Below, one piece after another: positions 27,557 through 31,512 of a stretch of DNA of 64,000 nucleotides. The notes under the pieces are model-generated. The model did no database searches. It was not told the DNA's origin and saw only the letters and a list, made by a program, of their open reading frames with translations. How positions within the stretch are numbered: position 1 is the stretch's first letter; each line of letters starts with the position of its first letter. The DNA lies in IMG/VR virus record IMGVR_UViG_2802428982_000005, positions 19,927 to 83,926 of that record; one strand, 5' to 3'. This DNA is from a virus (lineage: Duplodnaviria; Heunggongvirae; Uroviricota; Caudoviricetes). A program made the translations under genes and the position numbers.

Positions 27557-27902
27557 TGCGCGTATCTCCCTGTGTAACAAAATGTTTGGGGGTGCACCGG
27601 GCCTAGTTACCCGTTCGGCCGTGACGCGACAGCTGCCCAGCTTGTTCCACGCGAGGGCAAATGGCGGCCCGGTGCACCGGCCTTTGGGGCTTCCCGCCAG
27701 CGCGGCGCAGCGCGCCCTCACCCCCAAGGAGTTGGGGCGTCCTGGGCATCGGCGTACCACCCGCCCGACAGGCCGGGCAGCGATGTGGTGGCGTACCTGG
27801 TGACCCCGGCGCCGAGCACGCGGCGAACCTGGGGCCGCGCGCTTACCGGCAGTATCAGCGGTACCGGGTTGACGCGGCGCGGGTCGGGAAGCGGATAAAC
27901 GA

Positions 27903-27932
27903 AACGCCCCCGGGGTGAGTACCGGGGGCGTT
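27903..27932 (-). terminator. intrinsic terminator-like hairpin closing the low-GC moron operon
   Basis: Perfect 11-bp stem aacgcccccgg / ccgggggcgtt with an 8-nt loop; on the minus strand it is followed by UCGUUUAU; lies 85 nt downstream of gene 28016..28345 in a ~450-bp non-coding gap. Confidence 0.5.
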
Positions 27933-28015
27933 CAAGGCACAGCGGTGCCAACGACATATGTATAACACGTGATACGGGCGCATGCCCGTACGCAGATCAG
28001 ACGGGTGTGTCGGGC

Positions 28016-28345
28016 CTACCCCGTGTAGGGCTGATCGTGAATGACCGGCCGCGCCATGTGATAGATGTCAGCCTGCAATCCCTCGACCAACCGAGCGGTG
28101 CGCCACACCACGTCAACGAACAAGCGCACGACGTCTCCGGTGACCTTCTGCGTTTGTTCCTTCTCGGCAATCAGTTGGGCCAGCGGTCGAGTAACTGGGT
28201 CATTCGTGTCGACACCAACCGATTTGGCGATCCGCTTTAGCTCGGACCAATAAATCAGGTTAGGTTCGCGGCGCGCGCTGTCCTCAAGGTGGCGCAGCTC
28301 ATCGACAGCCCTACGTAGGTGGTCGGCATCCCATACCAGTGTCAT
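28016..28345 (-). CDS. hypothetical protein (109 aa), last gene of the moron operon
   Basis: ORF. Confidence 0.45.
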   Translation of the reverse strand: MTLVWDADHLRRAVDELRHLEDSARREPNLIYWSELKRIAKSVGVDTNDPVTRPLAQLIAEKEQTQKVTGDVVRLFVDVVWRTARLVEGLQADIYHMARPVIHDQPYTG

Positions 28346-28387
28346 GCAGCAATCGTGCCACGGGCGGCCGGACAGCAGAGCGCCCTA

Positions 28388-28792
28388 CTAGGCCGTTCGG
28401 CAGGAAGCCGCGTGTGCAGCGAGCAGAGCGGCGGCGACCGCGGGTGCGTCGGCAGCGGCGAGCGGTGTTGGTATGCCGGACAGGGTTAGCCGGTTGCCAC
28501 GCGGCGTGCGGTGCAGCCGGATAGTGCCATCGGCCCACGGTTGACCGCCTAGTGGTACCCGGACCGACTCGGACCCGAACGCGTCCCGAGCAACGTCTGG
28601 CAGCTCCACCAACAGACAGCCAACCGATTGGAGAAGTGGCGGCAGAACCGACGCTATCCGGGCTGCTACCTCCTCCGGGGTGTAAACAAGCGTGGTGGGG
28701 TGAATGTCGCCCAAGCGTGTTTGCGTAGTGCCCAGCAGATTGGGTATGCCCGCGATGGCTTGCCTGATCAATGCCTCAACACGGCGTCCCAT
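28388..28792 (-). CDS. hypothetical protein (134 aa)
   Basis: ORF. Confidence 0.45.
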   Translation of the reverse strand: MGRRVEALIRQAIAGIPNLLGTTQTRLGDIHPTTLVYTPEEVAARIASVLPPLLQSVGCLLVELPDVARDAFGSESVRVPLGGQPWADGTIRLHRTPRGNRLTLSGIPTPLAAADAPAVAAALLAAHAASCRTA

Positions 28793-28827
28793 GTCCGGTT
28801 TCTATCAGATGCCACCGACAGCGCTGC

Positions 28828-29370
28828 CTACTTCTGCATCTCCGTGCAGATGGTGAACTGGCGCACCGGGTGCGCGTATCCGGTGCACATGTCGCCTTTG
28901 GTGGTGTTGAGCACGAGTTTGGTGGCACGGAATCTACGTGGCGCGGTCGCATCGTCGCATGCCACAGCGCGGGTGGCTTCGTTGGTGATGCTCAGGCAAT
29001 TGGAGCTGGTCCAGTACAGGTCCAAGCATGCGGTCCATTCACCGGCGGCAGTGTTGCGGTAGTAGCGCCGGTCGACGTCGCGCACGCAGTCCTTTGGCTC
29101 CACGACCCGTTGCACGATGCGATGCGTGGCATCGCCAGAGTCGCATTTGGTGAGCACCATGGCGGCATCGTTGCGCTTGCCGGTGATCTTGACGCATGCA
29201 CGCACTGGGGCGTCCTCTGCTCCTGCTGCGGTTGTGGTTGCAGGGTCAGGGAACTGTCCGGGGATCTGTGTGTAATTCGGTCCAGTCTCCGCAGGCGGAG
29301 GACTTTGGCACCCAAACAGAGCCATCGTGGCCGTCAGGAACCCCACCGTTAAGGCGGCTGGTCTGCTCAC
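28828..29370 (-). CDS. putative secreted lipoprotein, Cys-rich mature domain (180 aa, GTG start)
   Basis: GTG 29370..29368 overlaps the upstream stop TGA; signal peptide SRPAALTVGFLTATMALFG followed by Cys (lipobox-like LFGC); 8 further Cys in the mature part. Confidence 0.55.
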   Translation of the reverse strand: MSRPAALTVGFLTATMALFGCQSPPPAETGPNYTQIPGQFPDPATTTAAGAEDAPVRACVKITGKRNDAAMVLTKCDSGDATHRIVQRVVEPKDCVRDVDRRYYRNTAAGEWTACLDLYWTSSNCLSITNEATRAVACDDATAPRRFRATKLVLNTTKGDMCTGYAHPVRQFTICTEMQK

Positions 29371-29873
29371 CGCTCGTCGCCGATGTATCGGTCGACGCTC
29401 ATGACTTTCCACTTCCCGCCAGTTCGGTACATGTTGTATCGAACCCGTGCCCCTGGAGAGAAATAGATATCCTCAGGCTTTGGATTCTTTTGGTCTTCGT
29501 ATTCCGTGTAGACGTACGCAACATAGACCAGATCCCCTCGCGCAAGGATGCTGAAATCGTGAATATGCATCGGGCCGTGCTTCTCAATTTGGTACGCCAT
29601 TTTGCGGACGTAGCCTGCCCTGGCTTGAGGATTAAGCTCTTCCTCTGCAAGTCCAGTTGACAAAGATTCGATTTGCTTAAGGTCGCCAGAGTTCAGGGCA
29701 TCAATATATTGCTCGACTACTGAGCGCACCTCTGCGTCATACTTGTCTGATTTGTCGCTGGGATGTTGCATGCACAGAACGTATGTCAGCAGAGAGGCAA
29801 CTGCAATAGTTGCGACCCAGGCCACCGCGACTGCAATTCCGCGTCGACTGACCCTGTCTCGAAGGGAAGTCAT
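29367..29873 (-). CDS. membrane-anchored NTF2/SnoaL-like domain protein (168 aa)
   Basis: ATG 29873..29871 overlaps the upstream stop (ATGA); TM helix IAVAVAWVATIAVASLLTYVLC; VVEQYIDALNSGDLKQIESL NTF2-like signature; lies in a ~50% GC island. Confidence 0.55.
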   Translation of the reverse strand: MTSLRDRVSRRGIAVAVAWVATIAVASLLTYVLCMQHPSDKSDKYDAEVRSVVEQYIDALNSGDLKQIESLSTGLAEEELNPQARAGYVRKMAYQIEKHGPMHIHDFSILARGDLVYVAYVYTEYEDQKNPKPEDIYFSPGARVRYNMYRTGGKWKVMSVDRYIGDER

Positions 29874-31345
29874 CACGCTCCTGTCACCACCCCGTTCGCG
29901 AGGCACTGCGTGGTCTTTGACCATGGCACCTGCTGCCAGAACCCTTGCACGAACTCTGTGGCCTGGAAGTTCTCCTTGAAGCGATTCGATTGACCACCTA
30001 TGGACCAGTTCAAGCTCTTGTCCATAGGAATCACGTCGCGGTCATCGTCTTCGGTGCCCATCCACGTAAGGTCTGGAATATGCCCAGGAGCTTTATCCTT
30101 GAATGCGTCGGCACCATATCTAAGTATCGCCCTGTCCTTATCGGCATCTTTGCGGCCCTGCATGCCCTTAGTTGAACGTTTAATCACCATTCCGCCCAAC
30201 TTTTCATTTCTTTTTATTAGATCATTGCCGCCATCAATGTATGCCTGTAGTCCCTTTTTGGTGAATTCCGATGGGTTGACTATATCCCTTGGCAGGCAGA
30301 TAGCCACCTTACCCATGCAGTTCGGCTTACCAACCTCGCATTTATCCTCAAAGTTCTCCATCCAGTCATCGATGAAGCCCTCGCATACTTGCTTGGCTGC
30401 GGCGTTAGGTATGGCTTTGCAGAGGGGATTCTGCGGCTGCCGATCAGGTGGGCAATCCCCACACTCCAGTGGCTCGACAGGTAAGCGGCCAGGAGAGCGC
30501 TCACCGTCGGGACCTAGAGATCCACCGCCTCCCTTGGGGAGCACGATCTCGGCCGCATCTCCGACCTGCTGAGCTACGTCAGCGACTTGTCCGGCGGTCT
30601 GGGTGACCTGGTCCATCTGCTGCGACATCGCCTGGCAGCGCTGCTGGCGCTGTTGGTCTCCCTGATCCTGCTGGGACTGGTCTTCCTGCTGCTGTTGTTG
30701 TTGCTCAGGCCGCTCGGGTTGCTGGGTCTGCGAGGGCGCCTGGCTCGGCTGCTGCTGCCCCTGCTGGGGCGACTGTTGACCTTGCTGGGGTGAATTCTGT
30801 TGCGGCACCTGATAATCAGGGTTCGGCTTGCCTGGCCCCTGCGTGTAACCGGGTGCGGTGGAGTAGTTAGGGGGCTGGGTGCCGTGCGCCGGTTGGTCCC
30901 AACCTTGTTGCGGCTGCTGTGCACCTTGCTGCCCGCCAGCTTGTTGCCCGGCCTGTGGCGCGCCGGAATTGTAAATTGAGATACCTGAGTTCTGATCTAG
31001 GGGCGGTAAGTTGTTCCCGCCCTGGTAGTCCGGCATGGACGGCGGTTGTCCTGGAGGCTGGAATTGAGAGCCACCCCCGTCAGTCATTCCACCAGTCGGT
31101 CCGGGCGGCCCAGTCGGCTCGGCTCCCACGGTGGCAAGGGTGGAGAACCCACTGCCTGGCGGGATGTGATCGTCGATAACTCTAGTGCCGCCAAAAGCGA
31201 CGGCAACGACAGCAACCACAATCAGCGCACGCCGTAGCCTTGCAGGTGCCTTCGGTTCCACCCGTCGAGCCCCGGCGGGGAATTGCAGGTCGCGGCACCA
31301 CATGGCGGTTGACTTGAGGTGCTCGTCGCGGTCTTGGTCCGACAT
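29873..31345 (-). CDS. membrane-anchored protein with long Gln/Pro-rich low-complexity linker and Cys-rich C-terminal domain (~490 aa)
   Basis: Likely ATG 31345 (ORF-track GTG 31354); TM ALIVVAVVAVAFGG; QQGQQSPQQGQQQPSQ...EQQQQQQEDQSQQDQ; C-terminal ~210 aa with 8 Cys encoded in the low-GC segment. Confidence 0.6.
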   Translation of the reverse strand: MSDQDRDEHLKSTAMWCRDLQFPAGARRVEPKAPARLRRALIVVAVVAVAFGGTRVIDDHIPPGSGFSTLATVGAEPTGPPGPTGGMTDGGGSQFQPPGQPPSMPDYQGGNNLPPLDQNSGISIYNSGAPQAGQQAGGQQGAQQPQQGWDQPAHGTQPPNYSTAPGYTQGPGKPNPDYQVPQQNSPQQGQQSPQQGQQQPSQAPSQTQQPERPEQQQQQQEDQSQQDQGDQQRQQRCQAMSQQMDQVTQTAGQVADVAQQVGDAAEIVLPKGGGGSLGPDGERSPGRLPVEPLECGDCPPDRQPQNPLCKAIPNAAAKQVCEGFIDDWMENFEDKCEVGKPNCMGKVAICLPRDIVNPSEFTKKGLQAYIDGGNDLIKRNEKLGGMVIKRSTKGMQGRKDADKDRAILRYGADAFKDKAPGHIPDLTWMGTEDDDRDVIPMDKSLNWSIGGQSNRFKENFQATEFVQGFWQQVPWSKTTQCLANGVVTGA

Positions 31346-31512
31346 AGTAAACACCGTAAACCATTACTACCGGGTACGAAACCCTGTGTGGAAAACCTTC
31401 TAATGCAGCATTAAGGTGCGCCGCGGCCGTGCTGAAACGATGGATCTTGTAGTTGCGGGATAGAGCTGGCAGATACGCGTCGCACCCTCATCCCCCAGAC
31501 CGCAACTCGGAG

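Follow-up and report, generated by a model that had tools for sequence, protein, structure and literature searches.

The window analysed here is the whole 64,000-nucleotide stretch comprising positions 19,927 to 83,926 of the virus record IMGVR_UViG_2802428982_000005 (IMG/VR; Caudoviricetes), and the element under study is a set of three minus-strand genes at 28.8-31.4 kb, designated A, B and C. When the region was compared by megablast it was identified as part of a Mycobacterium abscessus prophage, with 95% identity to prophiGD43A-5 (cluster MabK) across 27500-32000, bearing out a preliminary description that had taken this DNA for a prophage from its sequence. The corresponding prophiGD43A-5 genes, 63-65, are annotated as hypothetical. 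The three genes are as follows.

29873 to 31354, minus strand: gene A, open reading frame of 493 amino acids (aa), the same length as prophiGD43A-5 gene 63; predicted exported, signal-anchored, polymorphic-toxin-like protein.
29367 to 29876, minus strand: gene B, 169 aa; single transmembrane (TM) anchor and putative nuclear transport factor 2 (NTF2)-like domain; candidate cognate immunity or inhibitor protein.
28828 to 29370, minus strand: gene C, 180 aa; Cys-rich lipoprotein of the LppU/SCO3897 family.

Genes A and B overlap by an ATGA and genes B and C by a GTGA, and the same four-nucleotide overlaps are annotated between prophiGD43A-5 genes 63-65. Gene A begins with a GTG codon and its start frame is conserved ('MF[TP]M') in prophi79-1 and prophiT46-2. 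The predicted protein consists of a basic tail, one TM helix, a PDYQGGNN..PPLDQN..ISIYN motif, an approximately 105-aa proline- and glutamine-rich (P/Q) spacer, a Cys/GGGG junction and a C-terminal domain of approximately 155 aa. Modularity is hinted at by the PHROGs families, phrog_30921 covering the full length and phrog_35557 only aa 36-219. The parts of A are located as follows.

31169 to 31354, minus strand: A aa 1-62, basic cytoplasmic tail and single TM/signal-anchor (approximately aa 36-62) from a hydropathy scan.
30650 to 31159, minus strand: A aa 66-235, here called the N-module; PGSGFS..PTGPPGPTGG..FQPP..MPDYQGGNNLPPLDQNSGISIYN followed by the P/Q-rich low-complexity spacer.
30440 to 30649, minus strand: A aa 236-305, junction; RQQRCQAM..helix..LPKGGGGSLGPDGERSPGRLP..ECGDCPPD.
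29900 to 30370, minus strand: A aa 329-485, putative toxin domain; predicted His-Me finger (beta-beta-alpha-metal) nuclease fold, of low GC content.

These parts differ markedly in conservation among copies of the A-B-C triad found elsewhere. The tail and TM segment is the most variable (28-92% identity), whereas the N-module is 83-96% identical and is common to proteins with other C-termini. Nine Cys residues in the exported part of A are invariant among four triad homologues. Junctions of a related kind (C-Q..GGGGRSP..CxxC) are found where the N-module is joined to a different C-terminus, and the junction of A is, from its sequence, a candidate recombination or processing boundary. An Arg-Arg pair resembling a twin-arginine translocation (Tat) signal immediately precedes the hydrophobic segment in many N-modules (LRRALIV, GLRRASV; window 31200-31240, A aa ~38-50); Tat export was considered, and the pair is missing from the N-modules of prophi79-1, prophiT46-2 and Mycobacterium sp. 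D16R18.

By tblastn the N-module was found in 23 M. abscessus prophage records, joined to several unrelated C-termini. These include a zincin-motif domain, glycine-rich hydrophobic tails with small two-TM proteins encoded downstream, a C-terminal domain in prophiT37-1 for which no family could be assigned, and a 984-aa form. Such a combination of one N-module with alternative C-termini is what defines polymorphic toxins. A word-indexed protein search with the N-terminal 135 aa of A returned only truncated or frameshifted fragments. In prophiGD12-2, genes 80-79 (L007, 3420-5161) encode a protein that combines the N-module with a metzincin motif, HEIGHALGLIH, and after it an annotated metalloproteinase-inhibitor lipoprotein; a Fic-family gene is nearby, and the two genes are a candidate toxin-immunity pair of the N-module class. 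Gene A gave no match to the WXG100 families and has no WXG100 partner gene, the 158 bp upstream being non-coding.

The C-terminal domain of A was used in a phmmer search of 1.84 billion representative sequences, which returned 35 homologues at E<=1e-3. A [GA]H.PD motif was present in all 34 homologues examined; in 33 its distance from the C-terminus was 48-99 residues, and the other has a long C-terminal extension. In two homologues (P0040 and P0033) an Rhs-associated core (TIGR03696, E 7e-21 and 1e-19) precedes the domain, downstream of a third (P0043) are a SUKH immunity gene and a second PT-HINT/GH-E toxin, and some carry the mycobacterial TM and P/Q N-module, so that one C-terminal domain occurs behind unrelated N-terminal trafficking domains, as in polymorphic toxins. 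The domain thus has homologues in the cargo found at the very C-terminus of Rhs proteins and of other multi-domain toxins. In the plasmid collection no homologue was found, a word-indexed protein search gave no match, and neither the domain nor the products of the neighbouring genes D and E (see below) matched a family in Pfam, NCBIfam or PADLOC. Extra conserved Cys pairs are present in the mycobacterial sub-family and lacking in Rhs-type and other non-mycobacterial relatives.

An alignment of 27 sequences, 22-41% identical to A and with a mean column identity of 34%, revealed six invariant residues: H425, P427, D428, W431, N449 and G453. Residues G424-H425-x-P427-D428 are encoded at 30071-30085 and N449 at 30008-30010. 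AlphaFold2 run on the single domain sequence gave a low-confidence model (predicted local distance difference test score, pLDDT, 34), whereas with the homologue alignment a model was obtained with pLDDT 93.6 and a predicted template modelling score of 0.86. In this model a strand (94-98) is followed by a second strand (112-116) and a helix (118-130), with the invariant Gly-His in the first strand, the Asp three residues on and the Asn at the start of the helix. A beta-beta-alpha core with a strand-1 His and a metal ligand (Asn or His) at the helix start characterizes the His-Me finger fold, and a Gly-His base with a helix-N-terminal Asn ligand is the Serratia/His-Me arrangement (PMC5758888). 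The closest structural match of the model was the secreted nuclease NucB, at 7% sequence identity, although no neighbour in PDB or BFVD reached significance in Foldseek. Profile comparison aligned H-x-P-D..G..D..N-S-I-G-x-Q with the Ntox15 protein Tde1 (8fzz) at a non-significant E of 0.93, and Ntox15 was the only toxin family among weak Pfam matches and the family matched most often, by three of the 27 relatives (best E 0.0013); A itself had no match to Ntox15 (PF15604) at E<=1 and did not reach the family threshold. A further hhalign comparison gave a weak alignment, E 3e-4 over 99 columns, with the prophiGD43A-6 toxin, the C-terminal 166 residues of which are toxic in M. smegmatis (PMC10654092). 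The domain is accordingly taken to be a putative nuclease of the His-Me finger type that is related to Ntox15 without being a member of it; the domain homology and the fold prediction are solid.

Protein B gave matches below model cutoffs to DUF4440 (E 0.0014; 19.4 bits, cutoff 25.2) and to NCBIfam Rv0361_Cterm (E 4.8e-8; 33.3 bits, cutoff 37), and its relatives at 70-93% identity are named 'nuclear transport factor 2 family protein' by NCBI. The single TM helix of B and the positive charge at its N-terminus, which should lie inside, imply that the NTF2-like domain faces outward. The B homologue in prophiT48-1 (gene 45, L005, 4890-5432; annotated 'oxidoreductase', 138 aa) has a deposited start that is too late; its frame reaches upstream to a start beside the gene 44 stop and then includes the conserved basic tail and TM helix. 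B-like NTF2 genes are also found directly downstream of two remote homologues of the toxin domain, in a soluble form (P0020) and a TM form (P0025).

Across triads the identities of the C-terminal domain and of B rise and fall together (92/90, 73/69, 48/39, 74/85 and so on; r = 0.96), whereas the linker and B give r = 0.01, both values being calculated over the 10 pairs formed by five triads that are not phylogenetically independent. A downstream gene that overlaps the stop of A thus co-varies with the toxin domain, as polymorphic toxin immunity genes do. Between the window and prophi79-1 the tail and TM segment is only 39% identical whilst the C-terminal domain is 92% and B 90% identical, and between prophi79-1 and prophiT46-2 the reverse is seen; this reversal shows recombination inside gene A that moves the C-terminal domain and B together. 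The pattern matches the extent of a dip in GC content. Recalculated in windows, GC at 29400-30500 was 52.2%, whereas the whole window averages 64.6% (z = -4.9), tying for the lowest 1.1-kb stretch of the 64 kb, with single 300-bp windows as low as 48-49%. A fall in GC at 29.4-30.5 kb had been reported in the preliminary description and is upheld, but within the block of five genes only the C-terminal domain of A (53.8%) and B (52.0%, the lowest) are low. The N-terminal part of A (63.7%), C (62.1%) and D (65.7%) are close to the mean, and E is at 58.8%.

Protein C passes the LppU/SCO3897 domain model NF049863 (35.2 bits, cutoff 25) but not the LppU equivalog model, for which it scores 79 bits where 135 are required. 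Its lipobox is LFGC, and homologues have xxGC or xxAC. LppU-type domains 34-45% identical to C also follow N-module proteins with glycine-rich, hydrophobic C-termini unlike the nuclease-type domain of A (L008, 4758-5345; L010, 4734-5291; L009, 3948-4718), and the phiGD57-1 protein combines its C-like domain with a multi-TM N-terminus. Because domains resembling C are encoded after N-modules that bear unrelated C-termini, C goes with the delivery module and not with the toxin. The characterization of these three products in the preliminary description, as a membrane-anchored protein with a Q/P-rich linker and Cys-rich exodomain, a TM-anchored NTF2-like protein and a Cys-rich lipoprotein, is supported by the single TM, P/Q stretch and nine invariant Cys of A, by the TM of B, whose NTF2-like matches are sub-threshold, and by the lipobox and domain match of C.

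The triad occurs in the same gene order, at different genomic positions, in prophi79-1, prophiT46-2 and prophiT48-1/T36-1, and the A/B and B/C start-stop overlaps are kept in the annotated prophiGD43A-5, prophi79-1 and prophiT46-2 copies. A chromosomal copy is present in Mycobacterium sp. D16R18, where the neighbouring gene encodes an EspA-like secreted protein with tetratricopeptide repeats. This recurrence in unrelated prophages agrees with the earlier proposal that the block holds horizontally exchanged exported or envelope proteins. That proposal, however, had described five overlapping genes forming an operon with its own terminator. The further features concerned are listed here.

31355 to 31512, minus strand: leader upstream of A, 158 bp non-coding; approximately 70 bp beside the start are partly conserved in other cassettes.
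28388 to 28792, minus strand: gene D, 134 aa; phage gene (phrog_14375) outside the cassette.
28016 to 28345, minus strand: gene E, 109 aa; phage backbone gene.
27903 to 27932, minus strand: hairpin with a perfect 11-bp GC-rich stem (27903-27913 / 27922-27932) and an 8-nucleotide loop.

All five minus-strand frames were found where they had been placed, but gaps of 35 bp between C and D and of 42 bp between D and E leave overlaps at A/B and B/C only. Nucleotide homology to the prophi79-1 copy stops at window position 28841, approximately 10 bp from the stop of C, which places D and E outside the transferable unit. Gene D is not adjacent to the triads of prophi79-1, prophiT46-2 or prophiT48-1, and as it is missing beside these other triads its candidacy as a cytoplasmic immunity protein was rejected. 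A homologue of E (78% identity) is present in prophiT37-1, although a different cassette is found there, and the hairpin is conserved downstream of the E homologue in both prophiGD43A-5 and prophiT37-1. Since homology ends at C, D is absent elsewhere and E and the hairpin accompany another cassette in prophiT37-1, the transferable unit, as delimited by sequence comparison, is the three genes A-B-C. In this respect the five-gene operon was not borne out, and as the genes on either side share its strand, the strand pattern does not set the block off as an operon of its own.

The different cassette of prophiT37-1 (genes 56-59; L003, 5383-9573) occupies the site equivalent to window ~28.4-31.4 kb. 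It encodes a secreted 444-aa protein, 60% identical to the product of a gene lying between an MspA gene and a toxin gene at another locus (L015), together with an N-module protein having a C-terminal domain without an assigned family and a C-terminal TM helix, a DUF5642 lipoprotein and a SUKH-1 (SMI1/KNR4) protein. An HNH-like reading of the gene 57 C-terminus by eye ('ADHVVP..N..N') was dropped, as Pfam and PDB sequence searches gave it no support. Both prophiGD43A-5 (L001, 8927-9496) and prophiT37-1 (L003, 9582-10151) have an opposite-strand gene of 189 aa between the D/cassette position and E; it has no family match and is missing from the window between 28345 and 28388.

As a minus-strand RNA the hairpin has a folding energy of -25.6 kcal/mol (z = -3.8 against shuffled sequences), and its 3' tail, UUUCGUUUAU, contains an interrupted U-run; the consensus scan did not call the hairpin as a terminator. 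The perfect 11-bp stem previously noted therefore exists, but since it is also found 3' of E in prophiT37-1 with a different cassette it is a feature of the phage backbone and not the cassette's own terminator. It is a probable intrinsic terminator of a backbone transcript ending with E. The 420 bp at 27596-28015 that contain it, between E and the next backbone gene, are without an annotated gene, have 69.5% GC and hold a second, imperfect inverted repeat at 27815-27843, without an Rfam match. An Rfam scan of 27000-32500 as a whole likewise gave no match, and a promoter and terminator consensus scan reported no minus-strand promoter and no terminator. The leader of approximately 160 bp was confirmed as non-coding: the 45-aa 'gene 62' of prophiGD43A-5 (window 31367-31504, minus strand) is broken by a stop codon in the window and is probably not a real gene. 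No recognizable promoter or Shine-Dalgarno sequence was seen in the leader, and a leaderless-mRNA start for A was discarded, there being no conserved TANNNT -10 element at the right distance.

The flanks of the cassette region are 95-97% identical to prophiGD43A-5 and prophiT37-1, identity to the latter being 97% outside the cassette. In the prophiGD43A-5 annotation almost all genes around the cassette lie on the window minus strand, and the cassette is positioned with early genes, among them one for a Ro-like protein, on one side and the ParB/terminase/portal block on the other. Host tRNA-Arg(acg) and tRNA-Ser(gct) genes at 62608-62820 (minus strand) flank the prophage junction on its host side and so indicate the integration end, which at ~62.6 kb is far from the cassette; the opposite end lies beyond window position 1. 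ARAGORN found no tRNA in the prophage part of the window, and a tRNA-Thr is annotated in prophiGD43A-5.

These data show that A-B-C is a mobile cassette of three genes, and its assignment to the polymorphic toxin-immunity type, as a variant class lacking a WXG100/ESX signal, is considered probable. The toxin-immunity profile suggested in the preliminary description thus finds support in the homology of the A C-terminal domain to Rhs and polymorphic toxin cargo, in the His-Me model and in the co-variation of B. Protein A would be inserted with its N-terminus inside and its C-terminus outside by the general export pathway, placing the spacer and disulfide-rich toxin domain beyond the cytoplasmic membrane and perhaps as far as, or through, the mycomembrane. 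The toxin domain would act as a Mg2+-dependent nuclease or other phosphodiesterase, harming cells without B, whilst B, tethered on the outer face of the cytoplasmic membrane, would bind and neutralize its cognate toxin domain. Protein C may aid anchoring, maturation or release of N-module proteins, and recombination at the junction would swap the low-GC module of toxin domain plus B between prophages.

At three independent loci a gene for an MspA-family porin (PF09203) is either the immediate upstream neighbour of a toxin homologue or separated from it by one gene, in M. abscessus (L015, 1953-2699), Nocardia sp. (L018, 1677-2351) and Nocardia iowensis (L019, 3306-3929). This adjacency suggests porin-assisted export across the mycomembrane. 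As a tentative extension, which we hold with a good deal of reserve, there may be a second, ESX-independent delivery class in mycolic-acid bacteria and notably in M. abscessus prophages. In such a class signal-anchored proteins with conserved PDYQGGNN..PPLDQN motifs and long P/Q spacers would project exchangeable toxin domains through the envelope, aided by LppU-type lipoproteins or MspA-like porins and neutralized by immunity proteins on the outer face of the cytoplasmic membrane, with modules shuffled by prophages among clinical strains.

Several points weigh against the toxin-immunity interpretation. Enzymatic, toxic and immunity roles in the A sub-family are predictions from sequence, the route of a membrane-anchored A through the mycomembrane to another cell is a proposed one, and the co-variation comes from only five triads that are not phylogenetically independent. 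The predictions place the toxin domain, B and C alike outside the cytoplasm, which is usual for immunity to envelope-acting toxins and not for immunity to DNases, whereas several remote homologues are paired with SUKH proteins without a detected TM helix or with a soluble NTF2 protein; these indications of the site of toxin action point in opposite directions. As regards expression, the published text on RNA-seq of the GD43 lysogen (PMC8092301) implies silence outside the WXG100 toxin loci. The cassette also lies mid-genome among co-directional neighbours, with no detectable promoter.

Prophage-encoded secreted DNases are established in S. pyogenes, and by analogy with these and with NucB protein A could be a surface-tethered or released extracellular DNase that degrades biofilm matrix, neutrophil traps or viscous lysate and so aids phage or bacterial spread, with B as a chaperone or inhibitor until release and C as an envelope partner, and with no role as an interbacterial toxin. 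The closest structural match being a secreted biofilm-degrading enzyme (PMC5758888) accords with this, as do the predicted export of A, B and C, the extra Cys pairs of the mycobacterial sub-family, which fit an oxidizing extracytoplasmic space, and a position among co-directional prophage genes that could allow expression at induction. However, the same N-module bears non-nuclease C-termini with their own downstream partner genes and the C-terminal domain is Rhs cargo beside SUKH immunity genes, whilst co-variation of the toxin domain with B and a GC dip confined to that module are the signature of an arms-race pair and not of a housekeeping exo-enzyme. An extracellular DNase of this kind is on this evidence unlikely.

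Two further explanations are less likely. Were the cassette a superinfection-exclusion or anti-phage module, as had also been proposed, A, B and C would alter or guard the envelope against adsorption or injection by heterotypic phages. The prophage location, the exported or membrane products and the swapping of the accessory cassette between prophages accord with this. Yet none of the five proteins, A to E, matched PADLOC-DB at E<=1, no homologue has a known exclusion role, the A C-terminal domain is homologous to offensive toxin cargo, and the triad is also chromosomal beside an EspA-like secreted protein and not phage genes; neither a lysogenic promoter nor evidence of expression was found, and we regard this function, which has no positive support, as very unlikely. 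Hardly any weight, finally, is given to inactive or non-toxic envelope proteins, in which the His-Me-like domain would have taken on a binding or adhesin role, accompanied by B and C as passengers of ordinary Mce-associated-like NTF2 membrane protein and lipoprotein type. Such a role would suit the membership of B and C in widespread mycobacterial families (Rv0361-like and LppU-like) of unknown function and the failure of any family model to recognize the A C-terminal domain, but the invariance of H, P, D, W, N and G in 27 sequences argues for a maintained active site, and the recurrence of the A/B and B/C overlaps in three annotated prophage copies also counts against this role.

M. abscessus is a hard-to-treat pathogen whose strains differ in large part through the cargo of their prophages. 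Published mycobacterial prophage toxins are only of the WXG100/ESX-dependent kind, being defined by the WXG100 domain (PMC8092301, PMC10654092), and the N-module relatives in the 23 records are annotated as hypothetical or membrane proteins; no paper on the TM and P/Q class or its MspA linkage was found in the literature library searched. If the toxin-immunity interpretation of A-B-C is correct, a new class of exported toxin-immunity modules would be added to the mobilome, together with a nuclease-type toxin domain that has clear catalytic residues and lies outside Pfam and NCBIfam. It would also raise the tractable question of how a toxin crosses the mycobacterial envelope without ESX, possibly with an MspA-like porin, and may bear on strain competition in infection and on the choice of strains and phages for therapy.

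Among known systems, the PEST (phage-encoded ESX-secreted toxin)/PT-Imm cassettes of M. abscessus prophages (Dedrick et al. 2021, PMC8092301; mSystems 2023, PMC10654092) are likewise prophage-borne modular toxins with swappable C-termini and co-evolving downstream immunity genes; some of their immunity proteins are lipoproteins and some of the toxins have Ntox15-like C-termini. A cassette of this type is formed by prophiGD43A-5 genes 110-112, beyond the present window. PEST toxins, however, have a WXG100 domain and a WXG100 partner gene where A has a TM anchor, PDYQGGNN motif and P/Q spacer, and they adjoin attL or attR whereas A-B-C is mid-genome and, unlike them, includes an LppU-type lipoprotein. 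With the Ntox15/Tde DNases and their Tdi partners, known from the type VI secretion system of Agrobacterium and Bacteroidales and from Bacillota (PMC10470768, PMC13556189), A shares H-x-P-D...G followed by D..N-S-I-G-x-Q, the C-terminal position in polymorphic toxins and nearby SMI1/KNR4 genes (PMC13556189). The Ntox15 HxxD motif within PD(X)3GG corresponds to G-H425-I-P-D428-L-T-W-M-G, in which H.PD..W.G is invariant and only the second Gly of the GG is conserved, and HNPDQIAGG of 8fzz aligns with this motif. The published Ntox15 fold is nevertheless mainly helical with no nuclease neighbours reported, whereas the A-domain model is alpha/beta and nearest to NucB, and Foldseek with that model did not retrieve 8fzz.

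NucB (PMC5758888) resembles the A domain in being small, exported and disulfide-containing, with an Asn metal ligand at a helix N-terminus, but uses Glu in place of the His base, whilst A keeps the Gly-His of Serratia nuclease. It is a free secreted enzyme, and its description (PMC5758888) mentions no immunity gene and no N-terminal delivery module. Rhs, CdiA-CT/CdiI and Sec-dependent WapA-type toxins (Zhang et al. 2012, PMC3482391) share with A-B-C the arrangement of delivery part, junction, variable C-terminal toxin and downstream immunity gene, as well as module exchange by recombination, and homologues of the A domain sit behind Rhs cores. The delivery part of A differs in being a single TM helix and P/Q spacer without an Rhs shell, filamentous haemagglutinin repeats or an LXG domain, and in operating at a mycobacterial envelope. 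The colicin M immunity protein Cmi has an N-terminal TM tether and a domain held on the outer face of the cytoplasmic membrane, the same topology as that predicted for B. The target of colicin M is periplasmic lipid II, whereas the A domain looks like a nuclease, and the systems have no sequence or fold relation.

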